Assembly: GCA_037379345.1 (NCBI GenBank)
Contig: CM074516.1
Coordinates: 10,974,001 to 11,038,000 of the forward strand
DNA: 64,000 nt
Direction of reading: 5' to 3'
Source: Perna viridis
Taxonomy: Eukaryota
In this document: piece after piece, positions 41,057 to 64,000 of the stretch
How positions within the stretch are numbered: position 1 is the first letter of the stretch
Layout: each line of letters begins with the position of its first letter
Made by a program: the position numbers and the translations under genes
Notes under the pieces: generated by a model
What the model was told of the DNA's origin: nothing
The model's input: the letters and a program-made list of their open reading frames with translations, nothing else
Databases searched by the model: none

Positions 41057-41068
41057 TGGTGCCGTGAC
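41057..41068 (+). promoter_or_regulatory. Primer-binding site complementary to tRNA-His 3' end
   Basis: TGGTGCCGTGAC, 6 nt after the LTR-terminal CA; matches the eukaryotic tRNA-His end ..GUCACGGCACCA. Confidence 0.8.
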
Positions 41069-41126
41069 AGTTCGTTCCTGAAAGTAAGTCGCTTTAATGT
41101 TATGTTAGATTTTGTTTTCTGTTACA

Positions 41127-42087: not shown

Positions 42088-42239
42088 AACTCAGTCAAAC
42101 TAAAGCTTTCTCTTTATTCCGGAAGCGATAAGGGGAAGAAAATACGTGTCAAGAAATTAAAAAAATTGAAGGGTCAAAATTTTAAAATTAATTTAGCGGG
42201 TACACCACGTTCCTGTTTATTCGAATTCAAAATCGTTAT

Positions 42240-43900
42240 CTCCGAACTCTTATCGACACAGAAGCAGAAATTAGTATTTTGAATAATAGAATTTTTAATT
42301 CTTTGAGAAATAAACCCCATTTGAAATTTGTTAGGGTGCATGTTCAAGGGGTTGACGGGTCTGCATTACATGTTCAAGGAGTTTGTGAACTTCAGTTTAA
42401 AATTGGCATGGAAATTTTGACACATCAATTTTATGTGGTTAAAAACGTAAATAGGAATATTATTTTAGGCAGGGATTGGCTTTCAAAATATGGGGTGAGG
42501 TTATATTATGATTTGCATTCTTTGAAAATTAATAGTTCATATGTACCTTTAGAGAACGACACGCGTATAGCTTCCATGGTACGATTGTCGGCTAGCACAG
42601 TTTTAAAACCTCAACGAGTTTATGTCTGTCAAGCTAGATTAAAGCATAACCCGAGTTTTAAAAAATGTCAGTTTATTCAAATAGAAGCTGCAGATGCAGG
42701 TTTTCTTGCTTCTCATCCGGGTATTATGTTAGGGAATAGTTTAGTTCAAATACGTCAAAGTAGACGTTTTCCACTCATGATTGCGAACAATACAAATCAA
42801 ACGGTACATCTTAGGCGTGGGTGTTGTTTGGGTTACGTTCATACAATTTCCGAGGAAACTATATCGGAAACGGACATGTCGAATTTTGTATCACGGGGCG
42901 AGCCGGATATAAATATTGAAATCAATGCGATTAGCAAATCTGAATTAGAAAAGCATGTCCAGGTGCCAGATGAATTTGGGGATCAAATTAATGAGTTGAT
43001 TATAGCTAATGAGGGTGTGTTCGCACAAACTGATAGGGATTTAGGTATGACTAAGACTTTGAAAATGTCCATTGATACTGGGGATCACCCACCAATTCGG
43101 CTCCGTCCTTAAAGGGTGCCATTGCATTATCGTCATGAAGTAGATGAGTGTATTGATAAAATGCTTGACGCAAATGTAATCAAAGAATTTGATTCACCAT
43201 GGGCTTTTCCTTTAGTAGTTGTAAAGAAAAAAGATGGGACTTTGAGAATTTGTTGTGATTTTCGGAAATTGAACAAAATTACAAAGACTAAGAGTTGGCC
43301 GTTGCCTTTGATAGACGATATTCTCTCGCTGTTAGGAAATGCAGTATATATGTCTTCTCTTGACGCCAGATCTGCGTATTGGGCAGTTGAATTAGATGAA
43401 GAGGCTAAGCAGAAAGCATCCTTCACATGCCCGCAAGGTGTATTTTCTTTTAACGTCATGCCGTTTGGACTTTGTAATGCTCCTTCTGTTTTTCAGCAGT
43501 TAATGTCTATTGTGTTAAAGGGTTGTCAAAAGTTTGCGATTGCCTATCTTGATGATATTCTAGTATTTTCTAGGTCGGCTGAAGAACACATGCGTCATTT
43601 ACAAATGATTTTTGATCGATTGCGAGAACACAATATTAGGTTGAAATTAAAGAAGTGTTCATTTTTGCAAAAAAGAAACTAATTATTTAGGATTTGTCAT
43701 TACAGAGACCGGTATTAAACTAGATTTACAGAAAGTAAAGGCAATTAGAGAATTTCCACCTCCAAAAACGGTAAAAGAGGTTCGAGCTGCTCTCGGACTT
43801 TTCAATTGGTATAGGCGGTTTTTCAGTGGTTTTTCTGAACTTGCTATTCCTCTTGTTGAACTAACCAAGAAAAACGTTTGTATGGTCTGAAGAACAACAA
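42240..43900 (+). pseudogene. Gypsy pol (protease-RT), truncated
   Basis: ORFs 42279-43112 and 43116-43682; SPWAFP, YLDDILVFS. Confidence 0.9.
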
Positions 43901-43973
43901 AAAGCTTTTGATTTATTAAAGTCCAAGTTATGCGCAGGTCCATTGTTAAATCACCCAGATGTGTCAAAAGATT

Positions 43974-44215
43974 GAATATACAACATGTTCAAATATATAT
44001 ACCATTCAATTATATAAGACACATCCATCAATCAATGTGAATCTTGACATAAACATTCTATGTGTCCAGTTTACCCGTACATGTTTACCCGTACATGCAT
44101 ATAATTCAATTTATAGTTAACATAGACAATATTAATTCTTAAAGTCATTATACATTCCTCCCTTTCTCAACAATAACAATTTAATCAATAATGTCTAAGT
44201 ACTGTCATATCATAA
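43974..44215 (-). repeat. Inverted copy of the LTR 5' part (40468-40708)
   Basis: Reverse complement match of ~240 bp with few mismatches. Confidence 0.9.
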
Positions 44216-44265
44216 TAGTAGGCGAGTGAAAATGCAGCTGTCAACAAGCATAATTCATATTGCAA

Positions 44266-46711
44266 CTTAATAATAATAATAAGAAACACAGTAAAAGCAA
44301 TAAGTCACCGCCACTTCGTGGTCGGCGACTTAATAACAAGTTTATAACATGTGGATGAAATTAACACTGCTTCCCAGAGGGGGCACCTTATTTTGGATGG
44401 CTGTCATTTTGAAAGGCATGCAGCCATCTGTAATGATAAAAATATGAAACTTTTTCGCACTTATATGGTTTTATATCTTTTACGTTTGGTAAAGATATCT
44501 CAAGTCTTTTTTCCTACATAAAGGAAAAAGATCAGAAAAATATAAAAAAAATCATTTTGTTCATTACCATGGCAAAAGATGAAATATCGATTCACTTTTT
44601 TGCATAACATTGTAGAGCTCGCCAAACTCTACCACCACACCAATTTTCAAGTTCCTGGCCACCTAGGTTTCAGTGATATCGCAGAAGAAACGGAGCAAAA
44701 AAGTAAGTCGCAAAACTTCATTTTAGCGACTTAATAAATAGTTATACCGATAATCATTGACATTATTACAAGCTCAACCACGTTAAAACCGTATAGAACT
44801 AAACAGTACATATACACTTTACCAGCAATTCTCAAAACAAAACAAAAGAAAAAAAAAAAAAAACAAATTAAAACAATAACAACCAATTACACGTGTCAGG
44901 TAGGTACGAAAAAAGCTAATGATGACACATTATTATACAGTGGCAAAGATCAAAACATGAGAGGTTTAAATGGAAATAACTTGGCTTACATTTTTTCTCG
45001 GTATTTTTGTTTTGTTGTTTCCTGTTTTTTGTTGCGCGTGTCCTTTTTACCTATACATATTTCATCCCTGGATGCATTCTTTTGATTTTGATTTTTGGAG
45101 TCTTGTTTCACTTGATCACGTTTGATATAAAGTGTATATGATTTCGATAGAAAAAAACTTTGAAAAAATGACAAAACCTCTTTTACATTTTAGACAAATA
45201 GCAAAACATTTTAAGTAACACTCTAGATAACCTCTACATAATCATGTGTTTAACAACTGACAGAAGTCAAATATTGTTACATACAGTAATAACTTTAGGC
45301 AAATTAATCTTGCAACAAAATGTATGCAAAATACAAACTTACAAATGGAATTTTGTGTGAAAAATGCAATGCACGAGTGATTTATCTTTGATTCGATTTT
45401 CATTGCCTCGTGACCACGATGTAAATCGTGAGTCATCTGCTCTATGCATCAATATGTTTCATACTATCAAGGCAAATAGCAACGGGAGAAGCAGATAAAT
45501 TTTCTCTGCTATTTGTTGAAAATAACCATTTATAAATTATTTGTAACAACTGAACAATTTGAAAACTGACAACCAAAATATAGAACTTCAAATACTCGAT
45601 TATATTCAGCACAGAACCATGGACGTCAAAATTGGAACAAACCCAATTTATACAGAGTACGCTTACTCATGGTTTTGGCGCCTTATCCCTACCTCTACAC
45701 AGCGACAACACGTGTTCAGAAACACAATCGATATAGATGTATTACCTTACTTTATCATTTTGCATCTTTTTATAGAAGCCGAGTGAGAGCTAGTTGACTT
45801 TAACTATGCATATCAATCTGATTGATACAACATCGAAAAAACGTGACGTACTAATTAAAAGGAGCTTAAAAATAAAGTTCTGCTTTCGATAAAAAAGAAA
45901 AAAAAACAAACAAACCAACAAACCAAAATAAATAAATTAATAAATAAATAATAAAAAATTAAATAGATAAAACATAAAAAAGTGTTAATTCCGTTTTCCA
46001 TATTTGTATACTTCATCACATTTATTTGTAAACTAGACAAATCTAGTACATGTTAGTGTTCACATGCAGAAAAGGAAAATACACTTACTTTAGTTTCTTT
46101 CTGTTACCTTTCATAGTGATAGGAGTACAGTCTATCATACTGTATTTATTTCTGCCGAACAACCAATCAAAATGTTAAATTTTGTTAAGGTGTTCTTACA
46201 TAATATATTTATTACATGCATGAAAATTATACAACCAAAGTAATGAAGTAAAAGGTCTTTAACAATTGTTAATAATCTCAGTTGGACATACCAAAATTAA
46301 AAATCAGATATAGGTTTGGCGATATTTGGCCACAGCTTTTATCGACAAATACTATATAAATAGTCACACAACATAGATATATGCCTAGATGTACGGTTAA
46401 ACAATGCACCGTGGGATACACAGATGTTTGTTGATTCTATATACCGTGGGTGCAAAGCAGTGAGCCAAACATTTTAATAATTAACTGTAAATGAAACTCA
46501 TCTCAACATATTTTAATCTCATTATGTAGAAAGCCAACTTTGACTTTTCCTATATCATTACCTGCTACATGGAAGATACGAAAATTAGGTCGATCTTCAA
46601 AAGTTCCTCATGAATCTAAGCTATTTTTTCACCTGCCTTATAACCATACCACTTCTTCCGTGCCACCACAAAGAGATATCTAAACAGCCTAATCCTACGT
46701 TTACACCTCCC
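44266..46711 (+). repeat. Segmental direct duplication, copy 2; ends at the Maverick insertion
   Basis: Matches 37141-39848 up to ttacacctccc. Confidence 0.9.
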
Positions 46712-46904
46712 ACTACAAAAGGGGTTGATCGGGGACCCCCCTTTCATATCTATTTATAGATCCAAGGGTAGATCTGAGGAACATAAGGATAATGAAGAGA
46801 TCGAAGATATTAAAATTACTATGCCTGAACAACTGTCAAACTTTATTTCAAACGATCAAACGATGATAGATAAGCGACAAAGTATTGTTAAATGGATAAT
46901 AGGA
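46712..46904 (+). repeat. Maverick left TIR
   Basis: 46776-46904 is the reverse complement of 63872-64000 (4 mismatches in 129 bp); the host duplicate sequence breaks at 46711. Confidence 0.9.
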
Positions 46905-47209: not shown

Positions 47210-47224
47210 GTATTTGAGTAGAAC

Positions 47225-47473
47225 ATGAATTCGAACACGGATGAATTGTACAAATGCATCAACATTGATGACAAAGAAAATAAGATCAACTGGACGAACA
47301 TGGATGATACCACCTTTCAAATCTACGAACGTATAGTATCTACAATGTTTAATGACGGAATAATAAACTGGGGGCGAATACTAACCTTGTTTGTTTTTAC
47401 AAGGAAATTATGTCATGAGAATCCTCAATATTCAGAAAGGTTATGGGCTGTGTATTACAGATCAGTAAAATGA
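47225..47473 (+). CDS. Small Bcl-2-family-like protein (BH1 motif), Maverick-encoded
   Basis: IVSTMFNDGIINWGRILTLFVF matches the BH1 consensus (LFxDGxxNWGRIxxxFxF). Confidence 0.7.
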   Translation: MNSNTDELYKCINIDDKENKINWTNMDDTTFQIYERIVSTMFNDGIINWGRILTLFVFTRKLCHENPQYSERLWAVYYRSVK

Positions 47474-47656
47474 TTAAAATAGTATCTTGTAGGAAAAGAC
47501 ATTTTACATCAGTGTAGAAAAAGGGAGACCTTATAACATTTTGTAATTTTATACTTAGTATCCATGATTAGCGATATCGGTACCGTTATATAATATTTAC
47601 CAACCGTGACACTCTTTGGGTATAAATAAGCTTTTGGACAACATTTATCTTTACAA

Positions 47657-48518
47657 ATGGGTTTCGACAGAGAAAAAACAATTTTTAACTGTGGTTGTTA
47701 CTTAGAATACTATTCACACGATTTCTTCAATTATCAAAAGGATCATAGATTTTTCAACGTCTGTGGTAAACATCCTAATCAAAAAGCTGCAATGGAAATT
47801 CAAAAGTCGCCACATGAATTAGGAACCGAACAAAACCGAGCAGCAATGGAAATTCAAAAGTCACCACAGGTATTAGGACCCGACCAAAACGCACCCTTTG
47901 ACAAGTCTGATGACATATTTACATGTTACGATGGAAGATGTTTCATCAATCTACTTGATAATTTATATGTGGTCGCCAAAGAATTCAATAAAAAAAATGC
48001 TAATACACATTAGACACTTTGACGAAACAGGACAGAATAAAATTCCTACAAAAAAAGGGGTAACATTTAATCTATCCAGATGGTTATTATTGGAGAGTAA
48101 AATGGATGACATAAACACCCTGTTTCTGAAATCACTGTCAGGCGATGAGATGGAAACATACCGACTACATTTAGGAGGAGGTGTTCACGTCACAGTTGAT
48201 CCAAAATTTCCAACGGTAGATATACGACACTTTTGGAAACCATCGGACTCAGATAAACCAGTGCCAACAAAAAAAGGAGTGGCTCTCAACAGAAAGAAAT
48301 GGATTCGTTTGTGCGACACAGTACAAGTTATGAGAGAGTTTGTACCTGAACTGAATACAACGGCTGTTTGTTTCGATTCACATCTCAACGATCTTGAAGC
48401 ATTATCATGTAAAGAATGTTTCCCCTTTGAAAAAGAAGAGGAATGGAAAGAACTTTTACCAAATCTAGAAGAAGACGACGCCGACCATACACAACCTTTA
48501 CCAACAGAGGACAAGTAA
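47657..48518 (+). CDS. Tandem PC4-like ssDNA-binding protein with a +1 frameshift in the A8 run at 47990-47997
   Basis: Two repeats: LYVVAKEFNKK/MLIHIRHF..PTKKGVTFNLSRW and VHVTVDPKFPTVDIRHFW..PTKKGVALNRKKW; TATA (tataaataa) at 47621; AATAAA at ~48577. Confidence 0.75.
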
Positions 48519-48729
48519 TAATAATACAAGACGTTGTTCATATATCTGACATTTTAATTTTTATCATTAGTTAGTCAATAAAATAATGTTTCCTATTTTT
48601 TTGTGTTGTTGTTTTTATAATGATAGAGGTAAAAACAAAACAAACCAAAATAAATAAAAGCTCGTGAAAAACCAACAGTTACTCATTTGAACATCCATTG
48701 ACCCAACCGGTACCACAAAAAAAAAATGT

Positions 48730-49944
48730 ATGAAAAATAAAGAAAAATTCAGTTTGAAAAAAAAAAACACCGAGATGACGTATCAGGAGAAACGTAAATA
48801 TGTTCTTAAAATATGGACTGACCCTGCACATCCTGCAACATTTACAGGGCCTGAAAAACTATATACTGTTATACGTAAAGAGGGAAAATACAACATTGGT
48901 TTAGGAACAATTAAGAAAATATTATCTAATAAGGAGTCTTACACTGTGCAGAAACCAGTGCGACGAGCATTTGCACGGAACAGAGTTATTGTCAGTGGTC
49001 TCGATGATCAATGGGACATGGATTTAGCCTCCATGGAAAACGTAGCTCAATACAACGACAACGTTAAATTTTTACTGATAGTCATAGATATTTTTTCAAG
49101 ATATTTAATGGTCAGGCCTTTAAAAAATAAAAAAAGTTCTTCAGTAGCCGATGCCATTAAAAACATTCTAAAAGACCACAAAAACAGGAGACCCCTTGTT
49201 ATACGTGCGGACCAGGGTGGTGAATTCAAATCAGAAGTGAAAAAAATCTTAACAAAACAGCATATTCATATTTTCTACACACATAACTCTACTATAAAGA
49301 GTTCATACGCTGAGCGTGCGATACGTACACTGAAAGGGAAAATTTATTCTTTTTTCATGGAAAAACAAACATATAGATATATAGACGTTCTGCAAAAGAT
49401 CGTTAGTAGCTATAACCACTCCCCTCATCAATCTTTAGGGGGATATACACCATCATCTATTAACAAAACTAACGAAGACGAAATGAGATACGTGCAATAT
49501 ATTGTGCGAATAAAAAAGATGAAAGGAAAACCAACTAACACACCTATAAAACTAAAAGCAAGTACTCAAAAGAAAAAGAAGAAGAAGAAACCGTTTTACA
49601 AATTTAAGCTGGCCGATTTCGTAAGAGTATCACATTTAAAAAGAACATTTGAAAAAGGTTATCAAGAAAAATGGACTATGGAATATTTCAAAATCGTGAA
49701 GAGATTCAAAAGGGGAAACAAAGATATGTACATGATAGCAGACATAGACGGTGACAAAATCAAGGGTACATTCTACAGATACGAATTACAAAAAATAGAT
49801 AAAACCGAAACCGATACCTACAAGATTGAAAAAATAATCAAACGGAAGAAAATAGATGGTACAAAACATGTTTTGGTAAAATGGTTGGGTTGGCCAGTGA
49901 AATTCAACTCATGGGTTCCAGAGGCCGATGTTAAGGATATATAA
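48730..49944 (+). CDS. Retroviral-like (rve) integrase with C-terminal chromodomain
   Basis: WDMDL, IDIFSRY, ADQGGEF, AERAIRTLK (DDE); chromodomain YKIEKII..LVKWLGWPVKFNSWV. Confidence 0.95.
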   Translation: MKNKEKFSLKKKNTEMTYQEKRKYVLKIWTDPAHPATFTGPEKLYTVIRKEGKYNIGLGTIKKILSNKESYTVQKPVRRAFARNRVIVSGLDDQWDMDLASMENVAQYNDNVKFLLIVIDIFSRYLMVRPLKNKKSSSVADAIKNILKDHKNRRPLVIRADQGGEFKSEVKKILTKQHIHIFYTHNSTIKSSYAERAIRTLKGKIYSFFMEKQTYRYIDVLQKIVSSYNHSPHQSLGGYTPSSINKTNEDEMRYVQYIVRIKKMKGKPTNTPIKLKASTQKKKKKKKPFYKFKLADFVRVSHLKRTFEKGYQEKWTMEYFKIVKRFKRGNKDMYMIADIDGDKIKGTFYRYELQKIDKTETDTYKIEKIIKRKKIDGTKHVLVKWLGWPVKFNSWVPEADVKDI

Positions 49945-49983
49945 CATTAATCTAATACTATATTCCATACATTTGAGGCAGAG

Positions 49984-50409
49984 ATGAGCTTGAGAATGGT
50001 ACTATCTTCCGAGGACGGAAAGAGTTTTAATCCTAGTAATACCCCATACGACTTTAGAATTAAACTGAATAGGGCTTTACAGTTTGATGGTTATTGGGAA
50101 GTGGCTTTAACAGAAATTAGAATTTCCCAGGAAGATCAGAAAGAAGACACCGCATTGTTCGTGTGTTCGGATATTTGTCAAGACAGTATTGTCGGAACTT
50201 CAGAACAGCCTTTATTAAGAAGAGTATTTTTTGACGACGTAAATGGAAAAAATGTAGTATATACGCATCCGTATTACGTACCGCTAAAATTGAGAGATGT
50301 TCAACAAATTCGTATCTATATTAAAGAAGGAAGCAGCGCTGATGCTTTATTTTTGAAAAAGAAAGTGACGGTGACACTTCACTTTAAAAAATTCCCCTTT
50401 CTTTCGTAA
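49984..50409 (+). CDS. Minor capsid (penton)-like single jelly-roll protein, compact
   Basis: SS...FNPSNTPYDFRIKL..GYWEVALTEI, FVCSDIC..SIVG...PLLRRV, PYYVPL, VTLHFK: Polinton penton pattern. Confidence 0.75.
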   Translation: MSLRMVLSSEDGKSFNPSNTPYDFRIKLNRALQFDGYWEVALTEIRISQEDQKEDTALFVCSDICQDSIVGTSEQPLLRRVFFDDVNGKNVVYTHPYYVPLKLRDVQQIRIYIKEGSSADALFLKKKVTVTLHFKKFPFLS

Positions 50410-50416
50410 AACAGAA

Positions 50417-50953
50417 ATGTATGGTCAGTCCTACGTGTCAAATCCATCTCTTTGGCAAAACTTCTATAAGAATATGTCGGAAAATAAATTTAATGCATAC
50501 AAATATAGGAAAAATTAAAAAAAAAAACAGACAGGCAGAGGCATGTATGGAAGATACAGAGGGTCCTACATGATTCCAGTCAACCAAAACACAACCTCAG
50601 ACTCTACTCCTGTGGTTAAAACATCCGTGGTTTCGCCTATTGCGGCTGCGGAGAAAAGGGTAGAATCGCAAATGGAAGAAGAAAAGAAATTACAAAAACC
50701 TCGTGTGAAATTAATACAAAAACGTATAAAAAGAAAAAAACAAGACAAACACATCATTAAGAAAAAAGCTGACAAGAGGAGAACATCTTTACGATCTTCA
50801 GCAAAAGTAAATAAAAAGACACAGAGGAAAAAGGTCAATTCTAAGAAAAAACACAAGATATCAAGCTCAAGAAAATCAAAACCTCACAATAAGAAGCTTC
50901 ATTTTTATGATAGTGTTTGGGATCTTCCATTGATCAAGAAGAAAAAGAAATAA
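50417..50953 (+). CDS. Basic DNA-packaging/core-like protein; in-frame TAA at ~50516 between A-runs (ORF track start 50543)
   Basis: ATG 50417 is in frame with 50543; QTGRG adenain-type site; K/R-rich C-terminal half; sits between penton and MCP. Confidence 0.55.
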
Positions 50954-50954
50954 A

Positions 50955-52268
50955 ATGTCATTTTTAAGTGATGAGAATAAGGAAGTCGGCCAACCTATGG
51001 AACTGTCAATTTTCGCCTCTCCTCCGAACCAGGTTGCCATTGATAAAATTAACTACACCGAAGAAAGACCCATTTCTAACTTGTTGAACGATGGAACACC
51101 CGTTGAAATCGTAGTTTCCGGTGCTGGTAGCGATTATATAGATTTAAGAAAGAGTCGATTATATGTCAAACTTCAAATTGTAAAAGGAGATGGTTCCCCT
51201 CTTGTTGCAAAAGAAAAAACAGGTATCATCAATTTACCTTTGCAAAGTATGTTCTCACATATCGATATATACATGAACAACAAACTGGTCTCAGTGAACT
51301 CAAATAATTATCCGTGGAAAGCATATTTGAAGGTGATACTATCATCGGGTAAAGATGAACAGGAGTCGCAACTGCAAAGCCAATTGTTTATGAAAGACGA
51401 TGATCCAATGGACTCCGTCACACTGAATGCAGGGTTTGTTAACAGATACGAATTTACCAAAGAATCCAGAACTTTTGAATTGGAAGGAAATTTGTTAGAA
51501 GACGCCTTGAATTTGGAAGGAAAGTTGTTGATTAACGGTGTGGACATATACATGAAATTATTCAGGTCGAGTAGTCCGTTTTTATTGATCTCAGGGGAGT
51601 CAACACCTAACTACAAAGTTAAAATCCTAGACGTCTATTTTAAAACAGCCAGAGTAAAATTAGACCCTGGTGTCATCTTGAATCACAGAAATCAAATACG
51701 TGAAACTCCAGCAAAGTATGTCATTAACAGAAGCAATGTCATTCAAAACGCCATACCAAAAGGCTCTACCGAATTTTACTGGGACGGAATGTTTCCAAAG
51801 GCCATACCATCCAAGTTAGTTATTGGTCTTCTATCGCAGACGGGTGTTAACGGAGATTACACTAAAAATCCATTTCATTTTCAACATTTTAACATGAAGG
51901 AGGTGTCATTGAAAGTTAATGGGGTAGAAATATACGGAACACCTCTCAAGCTAGATTTTGGAGTCAACAGAAATTACAGTACACCGTATGTGAGACTTTT
52001 TGAAATAAGTGAAAAATGGAATAAAGATACAGGGTTAAACATATCTTATAGTGATTTTGGGGCAGGATATTGCCTGCTGGCTTTTTCTTTGGATCCTAGT
52101 TTAGACTTTCAAGAAGATTTCCTCAATTTAGTTAAACATGGCAACGCTAGATTAGAAATTAGATTTGGTACCGCTACTACTGAGACTATAAATTGTCTGT
52201 GTTACTATCAATCACAAGCCATTTTAACTGTAGACGAGTCCAGAGAAGTAAGGATCATAGAACCATGA
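50955..52268 (+). CDS. Major capsid protein (double jelly-roll, PY)
   Basis: ELSIF..PPNQVAI, YIDLRKSRLYVK, LQSMFS, YPWKAY, LINGVD, NPFHFQHFN, GNARLEIRF: Polinton MCP pattern, 437 aa. Confidence 0.92.
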   Translation: MSFLSDENKEVGQPMELSIFASPPNQVAIDKINYTEERPISNLLNDGTPVEIVVSGAGSDYIDLRKSRLYVKLQIVKGDGSPLVAKEKTGIINLPLQSMFSHIDIYMNNKLVSVNSNNYPWKAYLKVILSSGKDEQESQLQSQLFMKDDDPMDSVTLNAGFVNRYEFTKESRTFELEGNLLEDALNLEGKLLINGVDIYMKLFRSSSPFLLISGESTPNYKVKILDVYFKTARVKLDPGVILNHRNQIRETPAKYVINRSNVIQNAIPKGSTEFYWDGMFPKAIPSKLVIGLLSQTGVNGDYTKNPFHFQHFNMKEVSLKVNGVEIYGTPLKLDFGVNRNYSTPYVRLFEISEKWNKDTGLNISYSDFGAGYCLLAFSLDPSLDFQEDFLNLVKHGNARLEIRFGTATTETINCLCYYQSQAILTVDESREVRIIEP

Positions 52269-52735
52269 ACACAGATCAATTAAAAGGAATGTTAAACAGA
52301 TACAAATGCCTAAGAAACATACTTATTGACATCACAGCAATCAATGTTTTGCCAAAACGCACATCTTCCATTTATCCTCAGTTATATATCATCAATACAG
52401 ATCCTCTACCCAACCCTGGAAAGCACTGGGTGTGTGTGATTTTATACAATTATGGACAGCTCGATTATTTTGACAGTCTTGGAAATCCGGCACAATACTA
52501 CGGCAACGATCTGCATAATTTTTTTAAAAGGAACGGTCAGAAACATAATAATTCTGTGCAAAGACGTATACAATCGCTCTATTCGGATCTATGCGGTCTT
52601 TATGTGGTATATTTTGCAGTGATGAGACTATGTTTACATTTTTCAATCAGAGATATTTATCAGAGTTTCCATATCAATGACTTTAAGCAAAACGATAAGT
52701 TTATTTATATGTATTTTTCACAAGAGTTTTTTTAG
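52265..52735 (+). CDS. Adenain-like cysteine (maturation) protease
   Basis: NTDP...PGKHWV, YFDSLG, IQS..SDLCGLY (H-D-Q-C); ATG 52265 overlaps the MCP stop (ATGA). Confidence 0.92.
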   Translation: MNTDQLKGMLNRYKCLRNILIDITAINVLPKRTSSIYPQLYIINTDPLPNPGKHWVCVILYNYGQLDYFDSLGNPAQYYGNDLHNFFKRNGQKHNNSVQRRIQSLYSDLCGLYVVYFAVMRLCLHFSIRDIYQSFHINDFKQNDKFIYMYFSQEFF

Positions 52736-52795
52736 TAAATAAAATGATAATTCAAAGAATACTGGTTTTATTTTGTAAACAAACATCCCATTGTA

Positions 52796-53449
52796 ATGAC
52801 GTCGAAAAAAACACTCCTGCCGTTTTTCTCTCCAACTACTCTATGCATCGTAGGTCCGACCCAAAGTGGGAAAAGCATGTTCACCAAGAAATTGGTGGAA
52901 AACGCAGTTTCCATGTTTACCCTTCCTCCGGAGAAAATATTGTATGCCTATTCTGAACACCAAAAAATGTTCGACGAAATGCAAAACATACCAAATTTGA
53001 CATTTCATGAGGGGGTGCCGAGTAAACAATGTTTAGAAGAGCTAGCTCAGGATACAAAACACTGTTTAGTTATCCTTGACGACTTAATGTCAAAAATAGT
53101 TCAATCCGAAGAAATTTTACACCTTTTTACAATATCAAGTCATCATAAAGGAATTTCAGTGGCGTACTTAAGTCGGAATCTTTACACGCAGGGCAAATTT
53201 GCAAAGACTATTGCCCTCAATTCGGCAAATTTTGTTTTATTTCGTAATCCTAATATGAGACAAATCTTAACGTTTGCCTCTCAAATACTGCCAGGACAGA
53301 CCCGCTTTTTCTTAGATAGTTTTACAAAAGCTACCAAGGAAATGTATTCTTATCTCATGGTGGATTTGTCGACACATAGTAATAGGGAGTATATGCTCCG
53401 ATCTGGAATTTTTCCGGAAGATACATGTATTGTGTATAAACCTCAATAA
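52796..53449 (+). CDS. Packaging ATPase (FtsK/A32 family)
   Basis: Walker A GPTQSGKS, Walker B VILDDLM, SHHKGIS, LFRNP, YSYLMVD. Confidence 0.93.
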   Translation: MTSKKTLLPFFSPTTLCIVGPTQSGKSMFTKKLVENAVSMFTLPPEKILYAYSEHQKMFDEMQNIPNLTFHEGVPSKQCLEELAQDTKHCLVILDDLMSKIVQSEEILHLFTISSHHKGISVAYLSRNLYTQGKFAKTIALNSANFVLFRNPNMRQILTFASQILPGQTRFFLDSFTKATKEMYSYLMVDLSTHSNREYMLRSGIFPEDTCIVYKPQ

Positions 53450-53487
53450 AAATTATAAAATATCAAAAAACTTGGCATTGTTAAAAT

Positions 53488-53796
53488 ATGAGTCGTCGAA
53501 TGAAGACGCATGCCGCATTTATTAAATTTTTACATAATTCAACTGTGAAACAAAGAAAAGCAATTTTATCCAATCTTACTGACAAGGAAATTAATCTCTT
53601 GTCAGAAATTGCATTAAACATATTCAAGGGAGTATTACCTCACAGAGAAAACTACGTCAAGACATTAAAACCTTACAAATTGATCATTGCACGGCTTGCA
53701 CACAAATCCGAAAGCGGAGCTCAAAAGAAAAAACTCTTACTTCAAAATGTTAAAGTCGTTCCAAAACTTTTGAGACCTGTTCTTAAATACCTATGA
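53488..53796 (+). CDS. Conserved Polinton small basic protein
   Basis: KQRKAIL..INLLSEIALNIFKG..LKPYKLIIARLA..KKKLLLQ pattern; TATAAAA at ~53455. Confidence 0.7.
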   Translation: MSRRMKTHAAFIKFLHNSTVKQRKAILSNLTDKEINLLSEIALNIFKGVLPHRENYVKTLKPYKLIIARLAHKSESGAQKKKLLLQNVKVVPKLLRPVLKYL

Positions 53797-54077
53797 TGGC
53801 AAAAGAACTAGTCCTCATACCCAGAAAGAAGTACGAAGAACTGTGCAATCATGACAAAAAAAGTGACATTAATAAAAACACGGAACCGACAGAAAATTTT
53901 AAAAATTCTCAATCTGAGGATGTTGATAAAAAACCGGAACCGATAAATGATTCAGATGATCGTACTACTGTGCAGTCGGGGGAAGGGTTCGTCGTGAAAC
54001 AACGATCTATAGGCAGACTTCTAGGAATCTCCAACAGGGTATTAAAAAAGACAAATATACAATGGCTAAAATTTTAA
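53793..54077 (+). CDS. Maverick hypothetical protein (94 aa)
   Basis: MAKELVLIPRKKYEEL N-terminus, QSGEG motif, terminal WLKF; ATGA overlap with the upstream gene; AATAAA at the stop. Confidence 0.6.
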   Translation: MMAKELVLIPRKKYEELCNHDKKSDINKNTEPTENFKNSQSEDVDKKPEPINDSDDRTTVQSGEGFVVKQRSIGRLLGISNRVLKKTNIQWLKF

Positions 54078-54135
54078 TAAATATGTATATTTTTGTACAA
54101 ATAAAACAAAAGTTTGAGAATGTTACAGTTTTGTC

Positions 54136-56159
54136 TTATTTTGTGCAATATCCATAAGGTAAAGTTGAGAGGTTGCTTAGTAGACGTCTCTTAGTGTAGA
54201 CCATTCTGAAATCTTGTGCTCGATTCTGTTGTATAGTTTTCTTTTTAGCGCTAAGCGAGAAATTTTCCGAGGATTTGTTACTGTAATACAATGTTTGGTC
54301 TTTGCTACGACAATTTCTTTCATGGTTGAAAAGTTTATCAGGTCAGAGTTCGTCTTACTTTCCAAAGAAAAACCTCTGACCTTGCAAACTTGTCGCTGTG
54401 ATTTAGTTAAAAATGCATACGATTTAGGACCACTGGAAACAAATTTCGTGATGTGCCCATCCTCTGGGACTATTTCGTTTGTCAATTCGCCCAAATAATT
54501 ACCGATGGGTAATGTGTTTGTTATTGTTCGATCATTATCCACAAAAATGATTGAATCTGTATCCACGTACAGTGCTCTGTCTTGAGTCACTTCTAACAAT
54601 TCGTAAAGTCGTAATCTTGCCATACAGGTTGTGAAACTGGCCAAGAACACATTTGTTTTAAAATCTACTGGCAAGAAAGACGAATCGTCGGCATATTCCA
54701 GATGAATCATGTCATCACTAATGATGTGAAAATCAGAAACTTCTTTTGTAGAGTCACAAAGTAATTGGAAGAATTTATCCGCTTCAGTATCGTAAAAAAA
54801 CTTTGTTTGACTCATGTTCAAGCGCTGTCCAAACTTTCCCCAAAAACTGTTTAAACAAATTTTGGCCAAAGTACGTAATCCGGGATTCTTTTTTATCTGC
54901 TCATATTCAAGTTGGATTTTTTCCTTTTCCGCATATTTTGCAATATAATCTAATTTCTCTACTTCAGTTTTACATTCGCTAGGAAATCCCGATGCCTCTT
55001 GTTTTATTTTCAAAAACATATTCACATATCCGGCAAACAAACCTCCAGACGCTGTTTTTCGGTCGTATTCGCTTGTGTTCTTAAAATGATAGACTTCATA
55101 GAATTTCAATATTTTGTAACCTTTTGACACGGCCAATTCCAATTCAGGAGTACACCATGTTCCAATAATAGCTCTGTCGTTGTCAGGACATGTACACCTA
55201 TCTTGAAATTCTATTTCTGCACATCGTTTGCAAAGCGGAAATTTGAGTTTTCCGTCTGTTGTCGTATACGGTAAAACAGGGTGAAACAAATTTTTCGGAG
55301 GTAACACTTTCACCTTGGCCAACCCAAAATATTGTGACAGGTCTGCAAAATTGGAGGTGATGATTTCAGGATGTCCACATACATATTTTGCGTACTTGTT
55401 TACACTAGGGTACAAACTACAAAGAAAGAAAAAAATTAAATAGCCATTACAATTTTAATCTGAATGAATTTATAACACAGTAAAGTCCCGTTCCCATGAA
55501 CAGATTTAAGTAGGGATAAAAACTTTGCACATATGCAAATTTCCACCCAGGGGTATTTTTTATTCAAATTTGCTCCATGTGACAGTACCTAGTCCCTAGT
55601 CAGACCAGATGATGCAAGTTCATATTTGCACATGAGTAAATTTACTCCTAGGGTATATTTGGTAATGTGAACGGATAGTAAAACTTGCACCCTATCTTAA
55701 TGAAAAAATCACTGTGATATCAAGCTTTTATACCAAGTTAAGACTAAACACCCCTGAATAAATTTGTTCAAGGGAACGGGGCTTAAGTCTCAGTTTTAAT
55801 CAAATTAAAAGAACGTATTTACCTGGTGTAATCGAAATACTCAATGGTCTCTCCGGGTTTTTCTACCTCATGGTACAACTTTATGGCATTGGTCCGTCCT
55901 CCAAAAAAACTCTCTCTGGGATGTAGACGTTCTACAATGTCCAAGGTTCCAACAAATTCAGCCATTTCCTCATCCTGTTTGATATTTTTAAGATATTCGT
56001 GCTCCCAAATACATACGTATTTGTATCCTATGCGTTTTAGGTACATCTCCTTTCTTTTCGTTGCATAATATAACTCGTTCATTGTATGTTTTGTTAAAGG
56101 ATTTTTCGTTGTAGTCCTGTTTTCAGGGAAACAATGTTGGCATCCATGAACAACACACC
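54136..56159 (-). CDS. Protein-primed family B DNA polymerase, spliced (exons 56159-55823 and 55416-54136), 5' exons not found, 1-nt frameshift at ~54211
   Basis: GCVVHGCQHC and YVCIWEHE (Vsr-like insert), FFGGRT, YFDYTS|LYP, KICLNSFWGKFGQ, YVDTDS, GPKSY, KVRGF; true C-terminus YTKRRLLSNLSTLPYGY lies in the shifted frame. Confidence 0.9.
55417..55822 (-). other. GT-AG intron in pPolB motif A
   Basis: ..TAC ACC AG|gtaaat ... tttttttctttctttgtag|T TTG TAC CCT; removal restores DYTSLYP in frame. Confidence 0.9.
55484..55783. mobile_element. PIF/Harbinger-type MITE inside the pPolB intron
   Basis: TIR agtcccgttcccatgaacagattta / taaatttgttcaagggaacggggct; TAA on both sides (55481-83, 55784-86). 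Confidence 0.8.
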
Positions 56160-56638
56160 CTGAAATTGAAGTGAATACTTTTAATTGTGGTTATCCTACT
56201 TTTGCGCCTTTGCCGCGTCAGCTCATGCAATTTTACACACTTAGACCGTCCGCTTCTCGAATACCGCGCCGCGTCTCGAATGTCGCACCTCTCCCCCATC
56301 GCCGCCGTCGCCGCCGCCGTCCCTTCTTTTTTTCAAAATATGCAGACAGAGTCCTGGGAACATATGAAGAGACAGCCTCCATGATAAATATGGTCAATTT
56401 CGGTACAGAGGATAAGCAAAGCTGTTTATGAAAATAAATCTGTACGCATATGTTTATTGACTAAAAAAAGACTCCTATTATTTATTTTTGAAAAATCCAT
56501 CCATAAAAACATATCAGCAAGTCCATATTTTTTTCTATAACAGTTTTTAAAATGTGGAGAAGAAAAAAAAACACCTTATATAATATAAAAAAAACTATAA
56601 ATCTTATTGTCTCTGGTTGGTTTCACTTCATAGTTTCA

Positions 56639-56830
56639 TTATCCTGTCTCTTCTTTCAGCCAGATAATTGTTGAAGACAGTATCAATATACATCTCCTCC
56701 TCTGTCTTATGTAAAAGTTCAGTTTGTTTTGTGCATTTATGATCTTTTTATTGATTATTGTAATGGTTCCGGTTATGTTTTGAAGTTCAGCTTCATTAAG
56801 TGAGACCTTCTTTACCCACCGAAACCAACA
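56639..56830 (-). pseudogene. Diverged paralogue of the orphan gene's terminal exon
   Basis: VKKVSLNEAELQNITGTITIINKKIINAQNKLNF versus IKKVSLEEAEIQNLTGTITIINKKIINAHTKMNY; the shifted frame continues DTVFNNYLAERRDRIMK. Confidence 0.6.
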
Positions 56831-57128
56831 TTTCAAACCAGAGGACCAAACCCAAAAAATACAATAGACGGCTTCTCTAGAGATATCCGTCAAGGTGACT
56901 ATTATGGTCAATAGAGCAAAATTTGTTTTATGGAAACTAATTTGTATGCATCTGTGACACAGATACTTCCTAACAGGAAAAAAAAAGAAATCTGGTTTAC
57001 TATACCATTTATTTTAAAAACCCTACCCTATATATACATAAGTTGAATATATCCCACAATTTTTAATACAAAAATGTACAATAAATCCATTTCTATTCTA
57101 AGTTCATATTGATGGCTCCCTATATGTC

Positions 57129-59498
57129 TCATTTGTTTATTTTCATCAACAGCTTTTCTCTTCTTTCTGCAATAAAGTTATTGAAGAGCGTGTTTTCATA
57201 GATGTCCTCTTTTGTTGTTTTCAATAGCTCTTTTAAGTAATTCATTTTTGTATGAGCATTTATTATTTTTTTGTTAATTATAGTAATTGTCCCTGTTAAA
57301 TTCTGAATTTCTGCTTCCTCCAGGGATACCTTTTTTATCCTGCAAAAAAAAAGATACATATTTCAGTACGGTGAGTGATTTCGGCTCCTTGGAGCCTCTT
57401 GTTTTCAAATACAATAAATTTACCAAAGAGCGGTTTATTTTTTATAACAGCTCTAGTACCTGACAAATGCCATACTTTTCTGTCGTGCATAAGTATACGA
57501 AGGTTTAAAGGTAAAGCCTTGATCTATTTCAAAATAACATATGTGATTCAGTTTGAAATATTTCTTTAGCTATTATACTTTTCCATCTATTTATTGACAT
57601 AGTTGACATAGTTGAAAAATCTTTTAAAAAACCGGCAAAGAAAAGGGAATGACTCCCATATCATTTCAAATCTGATTTTGAAAGTTTAATTTTACTTGCG
57701 AGCTACATGATTTAATTATTAATAACAAAGTATAATTTGTTATCATAAATTTCATAAAATACTTTTGTTGCTGGTAAAACCCAGTTTACAAAATTATAAA
57801 TTTCATAAAATTATATTATAACGCTATTTTTCATAAAATACAATAAACTTACTTTACATGTATCATCTGAGGTCTCTCTGTTTCTTTCTCTGTCTCATGT
57901 TTCATCCGGGGTCTCTCTGTTTCTTTCTCTGTCTCATAGGGTTCTCCTTGTCTTTTGCGTTTACTGAGAAAAAAATAGTTGTATGTTTTACATCTTTTTT
58001 TAACTAAAAATTATTCAATCGTGTGAATTTGAAACAGATCGCATTTGAGTTTTTTTTCTAGTTAACCTTTCCCTCTTCTCCCCTTTAAAAAAATATCACT
58101 TTGTATGTCGCAATAGTCTTTCTTGTTCCAGGCTTTTTTGTCTACTGCGAGGTTGTATATCCATATACATTTTTTAAGAGTATGTGAAAAAAAAAATAGC
58201 TGTATGTTTTACATCTTTTTTTTAACTAAAAATTATTCAATCGTGTGAATTTGAAACAGATCACATTTGTGTTTTTTTTTCTAGTTAACCCTCCTCTCCC
58301 CCTTTAAAAAAAAATACATCACTTTGTTTGTCTCAATAGTCTTTCTTCTTCCAGGCTTTTTCGTGTACTACGAGGTTGTATGTCCTTATACTTTAGAGTA
58401 CGTGAATTTAAATGTGATTTTTAAACATATTGTATTTGAGTTATTTCCCCTTCCAAGTTGATACATAGATTATTAGAAGTTCTTACGGTGTTTTGTGAAA
58501 ATCTGTAGTGTCTTGCATCGTTGTTTCTCTATAAAATAATAATTGAATATCACTTTCATGACTTTGTATAGACATTTAAATATACAAGATTGCTACAGTA
58601 GCCGTATGCGCAATGTCATGCAAAAAAAGAAGAAAAAAAAAACATCCATAGTGGCTGACTTTTGAACTTGTCCCCATACAGTATAAATTTGGCTTTTTCA
58701 ATAATGTTGGTAGAGCGCCACTGATAAGTCTTGCATAGACGAAACGCGTGTCAGGCGTAGCAAATTTTAAAGCCTAGAACTTTGTTGTAGTTTTTTGTTT
58801 CAAACTTCCGTGTCGGTTAGCTCTGCTGGTGGTGTTTCAATTCCCCGACGAGGTTAGCCCACTCCGGCATCAAAACACTTTTGTGTTTACGAACGCATCA
58901 AAGCTTTGAAATTATCTGTTTAAATTTCAAAATTGAGACATAGGTTGATCTTAGGCCTAATTAGTGTTTGGCTTTTTGGAATTTTGTTGTATGCTTTGTT
59001 TCGATCAAACCCCCATAGAGAATAATATGTAAGTGCTCACGAAATGTAAAATACCAAATATTTTAATGTGGGATATTATTGAAGTATTTAATAAAATTTG
59101 TTCACGTCTCCTTGTCTTAATATCTGACTAACGTTTTTTTTGTTTCATACAAGTACAACAGTATCATTAGTTGAAATTTATATAAAAAAAATGAAATAAA
59201 GTATTCAATAGCCTTACAGTGTCTGTTCAAAATCCTTTAATGTGTCATCTCCTTTCATAGAAGCTTCCCTATAAAAAAAAATTCGTATAATTGCATTTAC
59301 ACGAAATTGATAAAATTTATTTTAGGCGACACCAAATCACTTTAAATTAAAGTAGGATTGCGATTTTTAGCAAAAAAAATTCTCATCAACTATTCCTTCT
59401 CTTACATAAAAATCATCACATACTTCTAGGTAAAAAAATAAAAGTGAAACAAATAATAAAATAAAGTTAACTTACAGTTGGATCATTCTCTGTGCCAT
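57129..59498 (-). CDS. Five-exon orphan gene inside the Maverick (145 aa)
   Basis: Exons 59498-59476, 59268-59218, 58528-58487, 57963-57853, 57339-57129; every donor is gtaag, every acceptor is a T-tract plus AG, all phase 2; 438 nt open. Confidence 0.7.
58713..58760 (+). ncRNA. Degenerate type-I hammerhead ribozyme (Penelope pLTR relic, ~58680-58900)
   Basis: cgcc-a-CTGATAA-gtct tgcat agac-GAAA-cgcgtgTC-a-ggcg; stems I and II pair; core CUGAUGA reads CUGAUAA. Confidence 0.65.
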
Positions 59499-62400
59499 TT
59501 TCAACAGTGTTGTTCTTGATTATTTTAAAAGCAGTCCTTTTATAGCACTGAAAAATACCACCCTGAATATATTTCTGATAATTTATATATCTTATCTCAC
59601 TAAAGTGGTAACCATAGAGTCTTCAAAAATCTGTTTATGTCTGTTAATGACCCTCCTCATTGGTTTTATTTCTACTTTATTATTTTGTCTTTAAATAGTA
59701 ATTTTTTTTGGTTTTTTTTTTTGTTTTTGTTTTGCATCAAAAGTTTGTTTTTCAATTGTTTTTTACCTATCTGTAAACGCCCTATAATAATTTAAGTATA
59801 TTATCACTCCAAAGTTGTAATGAGCGATTTCTGATTCAAACATTTGTAATTCTGTTAAGTTTTTTTATGGCTTTTGATCTTAATTTATTCAAAATACAAA
59901 AACGATGATCAATACTATTATTGTAGCAGCATAAACAGTTATCTAATTATTTAACGACTAACGCTTTTCTGTTCGTAATGTGTAAAGTGATCGACCTTGG
60001 GGGTAAACCTTTGATTTCTATAATACTCCCTAGAACTTTTGAATATCGTGAGAAGTTAGTAACAACTATTTCATATATGACAGTATGAAGAATTTTAGTA
60101 AATTTTGATATTTTATACAAAATCTTAAATATTTTTCTTTTTTTTTTTAAGATTAGTATTATCTAATGCTATGAAAGTTGTAATAAAATCAAACAACACA
60201 GATATAAAATATTTAATATAAAAAAAACTACTTTAAACACGAAATTTCATTAGATGACATCTAGTGGCGAGGTACTCTTGGGGCGATTAATACCACATAT
60301 AAAATGAGAACCGAAAGGTTGCTGTAACTCGATAACATTAAAAAATATATGTAGAAGAAGATTAGACTTATTTTCGTTCCATCTATTTTGGTACTTAAAT
60401 GTTGATTTTCTTCATTAAGTAAGGAAAAAAAATGTCAGAAATGTTTAAATTGTAACTTATTACACTTTTATAATTGGTGATTTAGATTAAGGCCTTATTT
60501 TTTTTTGGAAAAAAAAGGTAATTTTTATAAGAATTTTCTCGCAACTGTTGATCAGTGACTTGAAATTTTGTTGAAGATTAGATTTATTTTCGTTCCATCT
60601 ATTTTGGTACTTAAATGTTGATTTTCTTCATTAAGTAAGGAAAAAAAATGCCAGAAATTTTTAAATTGTAACTTATTACACTTTTATAATTGGTGATTTA
60701 GATTAAGGTCTTATATTTTTTTGGAGAAAAAAGGTATTTTTTTTTAAATTTAATTAAATTACCACTATGGGCAGGTATTAAAAAATTGTGTTAGGTTAAT
60801 GAAAATAATGTTTGTTTAAACATTAAATTCTATTGGGTTATTCCCATTTCACAGAAGTGCCTTTTATTTTGTTTGTTGATGTAATATTACCTTTGTTTAT
60901 TTTTTTTAAATTGTTTATTGCATTTGTCAAATACTCAAGTATTGAGTTTGATATTGATATAGAGAAATTATTTCATGTTTTTTTTTCACATTAGGTAGGT
61001 GCTTAAATGTTTAATAGTTAGATTTCTTTTTTTTTTGTTGGTGCAATATTACCTGCATGTATGTTTTAAATTTTTAAATGTTAATTGCATTTGTTATAAG
61101 ATATTGATTTTATAATTGTTGTACATATTTGTTTTTTGTTTTAAATAAAAAAAGAAGAGAGTGAAAAAAAAACAAAAAAAACAGGGGGTATCTTTATGCT
61201 CAAGTTGTGAATATTACAGATTTGACATTTAGATGCCTCCATGTGGATTTTGTTAAATATCAACTTTTAGGCCTAATTAGTGTTTGGCTTTTTGGAATTT
61301 TGTTGTATGCTTTGTTTCGATCAAACCCCCATAGAGAATAATATGTAAGTGCTCACGAAATGTAAAATACCAAATATTTTAATGTGGGATATTATTGAAG
61401 TATTTAATAAAATTTGTTCACGTCTCCTTGTCTTAATATCTGACTAACGTTTTTTTTGTTTCATACAAGTACAACAGTATCATTAGTTGAAATTTATATA
61501 AAAAAAATGAAATAAAGTATTCAATAGCCTTACAGTGTCTGTTCAAAATCCTTTAATGTGTCATCTCCTTTCATAGAAGCTTCCCTATAAAAAAAAATTC
61601 GTATAATTGCATTTACACGAAATTGATAAAATTTATTTTAGGCGACACCAAATCACTTTAAATTAAAGTAGGATTGCGATTTTTAGCAAAAAAAATTCTC
61701 ATCAACTATTCCTTCTCTTACATAAAAATCATCACATACTTCTAGGTAAAAAAATAAAAGTGAAACAAATAATAAAATAAAGTTAACTTACAGTTGGATC
61801 ATTCTCTGTGCCATTTTCAACAGTGTTGTTCTTGATTATTTTAAAAGCAGTCCTTTTATAGCACTGAAAAATACCACCCTGAATATATTTCTGATAATTT
61901 ATATATCTTATCTCACTAAAGTGGTAACCATAGAGTCTTCAAAAATCTGTTTATGTCTGTTAATGACCCTCCTCATTGGTTTTATTTCTACTTTATTATT
62001 TTGTCTTTAAATAGTAATTTTTTTTGGTTTTTTTTTTTGTTTTTGTTTTGCATCAAAAGTTTGTTTTTCAATTGTTTTTTACCTATCTGTAAACGCCCTA
62101 TAATAATTTAAGTATATTATCACTCCAAAGTTGTAATGAGCGATTTCTGATTCAAACATTTGTAATTCTGTTAAGTTTTTTTATGGCTTTTGATCTTAAT
62201 TTATTCAAAATACAAAAACGATGATCAATACTATTATTGTAGCAGCATAAACAGTTATCTAATTATTTAACGACTAACGCTTTTCTGTTCGTAATGTGTA
62301 AAGTGATCGACCTTGGGGGTAAACCTTTGATTTCTATAATACTCCCTAGAACTTTTGAATATCGTGAGAAGTTAGTAACAACTATTTCATATATGACAGT

Positions 62401-63587
62401 ATGAAGAATTTTAGTAAATTTTGATATTTTATACAAAATCTTAAATATTTTTCTTTTTTTTTTTAAGATTAGTATTATCTAATGCTATGAAAGTTGTAAT
62501 AAAATCAAACAACACAGATATAAAATATTTAATATAAAAAAAACTACTTTAAACACGAAATTTCATTAGATGACATCTAGTGGCGAGGTACTCTTGGGGC
62601 GATTAATACCACATATAAAATGAGAACCGAAAGGTTGCTGTAACTCGATAACATTAAAAAATATATGTAGAAGAAGATTAGACTTATTTTCGTTCCATCT
62701 ATTTTGGTACTTAAATGTTGATTTTCTTCATTAAGTAAGGAAAAAAAAATGTCAGAAATGTTTAAATTGTAACTTATTACACTTTTATAATTGGTGATTT
62801 AGATTAAGGCCTTATTTTTTTTTGGAAAAAAAAGGTAATTTTTATAAGAATTTTCTCGCAACTGTTGATCAGTGACTTGAAATTTTGTTGAAGATTAGAT
62901 TTATTTTCGTTCCATCTATTTTGGTACTTAAATGTTGATTTTCTTCATTAAGTAAGGAAAAAAAATGCCAGAAATTTTTAAATTGTAACTTATTACACTT
63001 TTATAATTGGTGATTTAGATTAAGGTCTTATATTTTTTTGGAGAAAAAAGGTATTTTTTTTTAAATTTAATTAAATTACCACTATGGGCAGGTATTAAAA
63101 AATTGTGTTAGGTTAATGAAAATAATGTTTGTTTAAACATTAAATTCTATTGGGTTATTCCCATTTCACAGAAGTGCCTTTTATTTTGTTTGTTGATGTA
63201 ATATTACCTTTGTTTATTTTTTTTAAATTGTTTATTGCATTTGTCAAATACTCAAGTATTGAGTTTGATATTGATATAGAGAAATTATTTCATGTTTTTT
63301 TTTCACATTAGGTAGGTGCTTAAATGTTTAATAGTTAGATTTCTTTTTTTTTTGTTGGTGCAATATTACCTGCATGTATGTTTTAAATTTTTAAATGTTA
63401 ATTGCATTTGTTATAAGATATTGATTTTATAATTGTTGTACATATTTGTTTTTTGTTTTAAATAAAAAAAGAAGAGAGTGAAAAAAAAACAAAAAAAACA
63501 GGGGGTATCTTTATGCTCAAGTTGTGAATATTACAGATTTGACATTTAGATGCCTCCATGTGGATTTTGTTAAATATCAACTTTTAG
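58951..63587 (+). repeat. Near-identical 2.3-kb tandem duplication (58951-61270 / 61267-63587)
   Basis: Offset 2316-2317 bp; 'ttag' microhomology at the junction; each unit has an internal ~160-bp repeat at ~220-bp spacing. Confidence 0.95.
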
Positions 63588-63871: not shown

Positions 63872-64000
63872 TCCTATTAACCATTTAACAATACTTTGTC
63901 GCTTATCTATCATCCTTTGATCGTTTGAAATAAAGTTGGACAGTTGTTCAGGCATAGTAATTTTATTATCTTCGATCTCTTCATTATCCTTATGTTCCTC
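63872..64000 (-). repeat. Maverick right TIR (partial, runs off the window)
   Basis: Reverse complement of 46776-46904. Confidence 0.9.

Follow-up and report, generated by a model that had tools for sequence, protein, structure and literature searches.

The window analysed here is a 64,000-nucleotide stretch of Perna viridis DNA (contig CM074516.1), and the polymerase gene under study lies in a Polinton of ~17.35 kb that extends from 46712 to 64 bases past the window end. Its ends are those of a Polinton/Maverick: terminal inverted repeats (TIRs) of ~193 bp, with 4 mismatches between them, are flanked on both sides by the 6-bp target-site duplication CCTCCC. The left TIR (46712..46904, forward strand) is preceded by the left duplication at 46706..46711; the right TIR (63872..64000, reverse strand) continues for 64 bases past the window, and the identical six bases follow its end just outside (L031:65-70).

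The integrase (PF00665), protein-primed family B polymerase (PF03175) and packaging ATPase by which Polintons/Mavericks are recognized are all present. The integrase is of retroviral type with a chromodomain, in an unbroken ORF at 48691..49944 (forward strand, as are the genes that follow) with PF00665 and PF00385 matches above cut-off. The ATPase (52751..53449) has a Walker A motif and weak matches to Pox_A32, FtsK and IVa2, all below cut-off. An unbroken ORF at 50955..52268 scores 0.99 in the Atlas against a cluster in which PF21738 (double-jelly-roll-like) occurs in 30% of members, at a recognition value slightly under the tool threshold; it has 7468 relatives and, judged by these Atlas sequence features, would encode the double-jelly-roll major capsid protein expected of such an element. 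The ORF at 49951..50409 is likely a minor capsid protein from its size and position, the latter kept in other families, and gave no Pfam or PHROG match. Likewise, the ORF at 52184..52735 is conserved in other families, and library searches, Pfam and PHROG included, returned no significant match for it; we take it to be an adenain-type maturation protease from its position and its His/Asp/Cys-like motifs. Core genes free of introns are a usual, though not strictly defining, Polinton trait that this element lacks, in that its polymerase has two introns. Intron-sized gaps were also looked for in the other core genes seen in this element and in the related families of this genome, and none were present.

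A PC4-domain ORF lies at 47877..48518 (PF02229, E 1e-13), and a Bcl-2-like accessory ORF fragment adjoining masked N at 47222..47473 (PF00452, E 1e-9) is possible anti-apoptotic cargo of the Polinton. On the reverse strand, two paralogous coiled-coil-like exons (57114-57362 and 56639-57013) are 67% alike, and both lie behind polypyrimidine acceptors. The right arm contains a near 100% identical tandem duplication with a period of 2316 bp (58951-63165), which is absent from the sister copies on contigs C5 and C11. Outside the Polinton, a Gypsy-like element with gag, protease and reverse transcriptase (40465-44217) has 244-nt terminal repeats that are 99% identical and in inverted orientation, and it sits between two copies of a duplication spaced 7.3 kb apart. 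A scan of viral contigs found no relative, and hence no free-virus form was seen; the closest named relatives of the polymerase come from Mytilus, consistent with a mussel host.

Anatomy of the polymerase gene

The polymerase gene is of the pPolB2 type and is read on the reverse strand. Exon 2 (55823..56159, 337 nt) runs from the C-terminal half of a Vsr-like insert to the D-x-T of catalytic motif A and is 59% identical to residues 930-1048 of the homologue P0001 from Mytilus; it gave no significant PDB or PHROG match. The Vsr-like insert is suggested by a CxxHGC motif and a weak restriction-endonuclease-like match (PF18741, E 0.06), and two homologues carry the source name very-short-patch repair endonuclease. 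Exon 3 (54145..55416) supplies the remainder of motif A and motifs B and C (PF03175, E 2e-13; 66% to P0001 residues 1037-1442). Its last codons are frameshifted: the open frame stops at 54177, and the tail runs in another frame.

Between the two exons lies intron 2 (55417..55822, 406 nt), a GT-AG intron that interrupts, in phase 2, the Ser codon within motif A (here D-x-T-S-L-Y-P). Exon 2 ends ...GAT TAC ACC AG at 55823, the intron opens with GTAAAT at 55822 and closes with a 15-nt pyrimidine-rich tract and TAG at 55417, and exon 3 starts at 55416. The AG/GTAAAT donor (the slash marks the junction), pyrimidine tract and YAG acceptor are those of a U2-type intron, and the pattern repeats in other families. 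Reading through the donor meets a stop at the very first codon beyond it. Unspliced RNA would thus stop ahead of motifs B and C, which would make splicing obligatory. Upstream, the acceptor AG of intron 1 is present at 56160..56161, in phase 1 within the Gly of EF[LH]G-CxxHGC, so that exon 2 covers 56159-55823 and opens in the Gly codon ahead of CxxHGC; the donor and exon 1 are absent from the window copy. The initial annotation had placed the end of exon 2, the intron and the upstream acceptor at exactly these positions, and all were recovered here.

A MITE-like insert within intron 2

Nested in intron 2 is a MITE-like insert of 300 nt (55484..55783) with 33-nt arms that are 82% complementary and TTA on both sides. 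MITEs of the PIF/Harbinger type are characterized by TIRs with a 3-bp TTA/TAA duplication and by dispersed copies. Sequences related to the arms (3 mismatches) occur at three other places that do not match Polintons, two of them preceded by TTA; a full second copy of the insert was sought in the genome, and none was found. The 331 nt of intron 2 that match elsewhere do so only in sister copies of the same element. The whole 406 nt were considered as a MITE and rejected, since the insert spans 300 nt only and dispersed full copies were not found. An introner, that is, an intron-generating transposon, was likewise rejected, since the matches to intron 2 are confined to sister copies and intron-2 sequences of different families are unrelated.

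The insert and its TTA flanks, together with the defective state of this copy, could suggest that the 406 nt are simply a transposon insertion in a dead copy, with splice-like ends by coincidence. However, donor, pyrimidine tract and acceptor all fall in the ~103 nt outside the insert, which remain when the insert is removed and are of a size found for intron 2 in another family.

State of the window copy

Exon 1 encodes ~930 residues. It was sought with two homologues across the window and 10 kb beyond it, and nothing was found; when the closest relative, P0202, was searched against the genome, exon-1 matches did not exceed 66% identity and all lay outside the window. With exon 1 lost and the tail frameshifted, the window copy makes no replicase. 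It is a defective derivative whose splice sites nonetheless seem functional. The proposal in the initial annotation that this lineage expresses its replicase through host splicing is supported for the lineage, though not for the window copy itself.

Further copies of the family are also rearranged. The sister copies on C5 (L032/L033) and C11 (L034/L035) are deletion derivatives in which the polymerase is reduced to exon 2, and both join the equivalent of window position 57110 to ~55700; the C5 copy is a large palindrome made of two right arms. In another family copy (L062, on C10), a deletion fuses the protease gene to the final bases of intron 2 and exon 3.

Probable transcript evidence at the motif A junction

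Splicing of intron 2 is expected to produce transcripts that join 55823 to 55416 and restore the reading frame. Four sequencing runs (X1, X2, X6 and X7) were aligned over 47400-57500; X1 and X2 are RNA by guess only, no run containing the stretch being listed as RNA on record. A 249-nt Logan contig from X2 joins 55416 to 55823 and skips exactly the 406 nt, with CT..AC ends, and its 161 and 88 letters on either side of the joint match the window with 0 mismatches. This is a single contig at depth 3.6, from a run that is probably RNA, and it is the one case of exact intron 2 removal with the frame restored; the spliced sequence reads DYTSLYP in frame, precisely as had been predicted from the letters alone. 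In X1, a contig ceases to match at 55418 and continues with 13 loose letters, which is compatible with the same joint. In the raw RNA runs X6 and X7, of which 19% and 24% were read, depth over the polymerase exons does not exceed 0.12 and the joint is absent; this near-zero depth suggests that polymerase expression is low or sporadic.

The joined contig could instead represent DNA from a family copy that had lost the intron precisely. X2 is only guessed to be RNA, the runs compared were all RNA runs or guessed to be such, and precise intron loss may have happened in the intron-1-only copies (L004-L006) described below. Against this, all three exon-2 copies of the window family in the assembly retain the donor, and the contig is 100% identical to the window exons. 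In addition, X2 contigs amount to 96 million letters, compared with 658-934 million for X3-X5, and depth within intron 2 is zero, both of which fit a transcriptome. We therefore regard a DNA origin of the contig as very unlikely. Removal of intron 1 is likely, judging from its conserved GT-AG ends and from public gene models.

An accessory gene is likely spliced too. An X1 contig matches the reverse-strand exon at 57114..57339, which lies behind a polypyrimidine-CAG acceptor, starting exactly from 57339 and with 123 loose letters before that point. Most RNA reads on the element fall on a small fragment of a highly abundant host repeat (57370-57407) and do not reflect Polinton expression.

Intron states across the genome

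A genuine intron is expected to recur at one position in diverged copies while its sequence changes. With exon 2 as query, 31 genome matches were obtained, and the 30 loci fetched comprised 27 distinct ones. Motif A is interrupted by AG/GT after the Thr codon in 9 of these, by AG/AT in 1 and with only the acceptor seen in 1, and is uninterrupted in 12; the remaining 4 comprise 1 unrelated insertion a few codons downstream and 3 unscored loci. Both ends of intron 2 are exact in five loci, with lengths of 406, 195, 199, 105 and 181 nt, and across families the length ranges from 102 to 406 nt. The position is common to diverged families, and the intron sequences are alignable only inside families, as anticipated by the initial annotation for an intron. 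Its converse case, in which sister copies would be uninterrupted and the 406 nt a plain insertion with no spliced product, did not occur: the donor is retained in the family sisters, and one spliced contig was found.

The Vsr site was scored in 20 longer loci. Of these, 8 carry a GT..AG intron, 114-352 nt long, that interrupts the Gly codon in phase 1, and 2 have an altered donor; of the other 10, 5 are uninterrupted and 5 are without one side. Complete intron 1 is thus seen in copies that retain exon 1. Three states coexist in this one genome: some copies are uninterrupted, some (L004-L006) have intron 1 alone, and others have the two introns together.

These copies also bear on the idea of a chance insertion. 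In other families, and in other species, the interruption falls at that very base but consists of unrelated sequence, and the exact joint is present in the X2 contig. A true later insertion, at L014, looks different: it lies at another base, has a duplication and has no GT-AG ends. Taken together with the splice signals outside the nested insert, these observations make a coincidental insertion extremely improbable, and an intron the reading to be carried forward.

Homologues in other species

Whether polymerase genes of other species are broken at the same points was judged from the ORF ends of database proteins, taking the calls of ENA, Logan and JGI to be unspliced. In the Mytilus cluster of the best long homologue, ENA/Logan ORFs of 1187, 81 and 441 aa break at both intron points. 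Two RefSeq Mytilus models in that cluster are 1521 aa long, and the one inspected is joined across both breaks; the joining of these exons by RefSeq models is thus already on record, without comment. Among 23 short exon-2 homologues, which were chosen by a length window that favours interrupted genes, 17, one of them from the window itself, carry Arg in place of Ser behind D-x-x, the residue that an AG/GT donor yields; 3 are contiguous and 3 are broken otherwise. Motif A is contiguous by pattern in 99 of 120 long homologues, some of which are spliced gene models, and 19 were unscored. The expectation of the initial annotation that ORF-based searches would call such genes broken fits both the fragmented ENA/Logan calls and a published ORF filter of 900 aa (PMC10748475).

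In the sister clades, many ORFs (P0169, P0172-P0177, P0180, P0182, P0186, P0168) start just after the Vsr CxxHGC, and P0186 begins with an acceptor-like stretch without the Gly. These starts hint at an intron close to where intron 1 lies, perhaps offset from it by a single base. Animal Polinton polymerases, some with spliceosomal introns, are also found in metagenome contigs (L059-L061, P0005, P0029, P0050). Proteins related to these bear the names of bacterial symbionts, which likely reflects host DNA in symbiont assemblies.

Annotation of the Mytilus copies as ordinary genes in RefSeq raises the possibility that the intron-bearing polymerase was domesticated by the host and acquired its introns once captured. 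Bivalves offer a precedent in the intron-bearing Tc1-like TLEWI elements (10.1101/656579). Nevertheless, the TIRs of the window element are 98% identical, its 6-bp target duplication is intact, and intron-bearing copies lie on several contigs, many of them degraded and several beside integrase and capsid genes. Domestication is therefore highly improbable.

Age and origin of the introns

Intron-bearing families differ from each other by a pS of 0.74-0.89 and a pN of 0.14-0.33. Synonymous sites are thus saturated while the protein is conserved, which indicates that purifying selection acted throughout the divergence and that the introns resided in working polymerases. Exon-3 trees were built with 127 and 131 rows, plus a 33-row tree, and L014 (147 residues) was left out. 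The intron-bearing copies of the window's group and the intron-1-only copies form one clade (support 100/100) that is nested among uninterrupted relatives. For the order in which the two introns were gained, the AU test is compatible with either (p 0.47).

On two metagenome contigs, L059 and L060, the identical motif A base is interrupted by a GT..AG intron of 197 and 152 nt, respectively, and L060 is without intron 1. Together with P0201 they form a separate clade adjoining the uninterrupted P0050 and L061. Uniting the two intron clades is rejected by AU tests (p 4e-8, or p 1.5e-4 with the intron-1-only copies included) run under LG+G4 with no mixture model, on groups chosen after the first tree had been viewed. 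Parallel gain at the same base in two clades is likely as the simplest reading of these trees, and recombination between Polintons could transfer an intron.

A different history is that the motif A intron is ancestral and was often lost through reverse-transcribed copies, or was moved by recombination, without having been gained twice. The identical base in two distant clades is consistent with this, the intron-1-only subclade may itself be a loss, as the same AU value would allow, and change counts on unrooted trees do not tell gain from loss. On the other side, many uninterrupted lineages lie between the clades, as the contiguous long homologues illustrate, and the L060 clade is without intron 1. 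An ancestral intron thus has some real chance of being correct, and separate gain is preferred.

Both introns interrupt invariant Gly and Ser codons, at G/G or AG/Y junctions, and uninterrupted relatives have the same AG/T at motif A. Conserved codons keep proto-splice sites available, and the invariance of these two would be a plain reason for introns inside catalytic motifs. It is also conceivable that introns were gained repeatedly and independently at the same motif A base and kept by selection as a splicing gate on the replicase, with a whole class of such elements hidden from ORF-based surveys; this more ambitious reading is doubtful. If it were true, the element would replicate only in cells or states that splice polymerase RNA.

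By the plainer reading, separate gain at available sites, the integrated element would be transcribed in the nucleus, and the host major spliceosome would remove intron 1 from the Vsr insert and intron 2 from motif A, so that in complete copies three exons would give a protein of ~1,500 aa. The introns would have been gained in an active lineage at AG/N proto-splice sites and then inherited through many rounds of replication, with the intron at the same base in the distant clade arising separately. The window copy is a derivative that has lost exon 1, carries the tail frameshift and has the MITE-like insert in intron 2. Our confidence is high that these 406 nt represent a GT-AG intron within the motif A Ser codon of a Polinton polymerase, one of two shared by a bivalve clade, and that this polymerase likely needs host splicing.

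Comparison with known systems

The closest described systems are the Vsr-type pPolB2 Polintons of marine molluscs and nematodes reported by Jeong et al. 2023 (PMC10748475), who restricted their set to pPolB ORFs of 900 aa or longer. Those elements share with the window element the protein-primed family B polymerase with its Vsr-like insert, the integrase, ATPase and capsid genes, the TIRs and the 6-bp duplication; the polymerase here differs in having two spliceosomal introns, and the passages of that paper on introns and splicing mention none within the genes of Polintons. The Mavericks of vertebrates and nematodes likewise have the same core gene set and end structure. In the relevant passages, intact vertebrate elements are described as having no introns in their genes (Barreat and Katzourakis 2021, PMC8097293), and nematode elements as having intronless core genes, with introns only in host-derived cargo genes (Widen et al., 10.1101/2022.07.12.499685). 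Endogenous viruses are assumed to be intron-free in the passage seen of another study (PMC10120064). In the papers and abstracts searched, no description of spliceosomal introns in an animal Polinton polymerase was found; the words 'intron', 'splic' and 'exon' are absent from the text of the coral polintovirus paper, and the passages found of the adintovirus paper, Buck et al. and a bivalve transposon survey contain nothing relevant to spliced Polinton genes.

Introns have been reported in other elements. According to the parts of the sources concerned, dinoflagellate eupolintoviruses contain introners, ~25% of them in coding regions (PMC12166617), and cryptophyte PLVs contain group I introns (PMC12220804). 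The eupolintovirus introns resemble those described here in being of spliceosomal type and within Polinton-like elements. However, introners are young, repeated, intron-generating transposons, as that account describes them, whereas the introns of the window clade are old, unrelated between families, fixed in position and seen, among core genes, only in the polymerase. TLEWI, as presented in part of its report (10.1101/656579), are Tc1-like elements of pteriomorph bivalves with spliceosomal introns in the enzyme gene; they are without TIRs, low in copy number and domesticated-looking, in contrast to the window-clade Polintons, which keep TIRs, target duplications and capsid genes.

Adenoviruses may provide a parallel, by analogy only. 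The related protein-primed polymerase of adenovirus E2B is made from spliced nuclear RNA; there, leader exons are joined to a long unbroken coding exon, and splicing is not known to split catalytic motifs.

Thus, the replicase of a bivalve Polinton clade, seen here in a defective copy, very probably contains two introns that are real, old and spliced. To the existing record the present analysis adds an observed splice joint, three intron states in a single genome and likely parallel gain at one base. A gene that was ancestrally free of introns and occurs, within the same genome, in families with none, one or two of them is a rare, clean system for the study of intron gain, and replicase expression in this clade would be nuclear and splicing-dependent. 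Among Polintons, an old bivalve clade with a three-exon replicase breaks the intron-free rule, and its copies would be scored as broken by the long-ORF filters of surveys.
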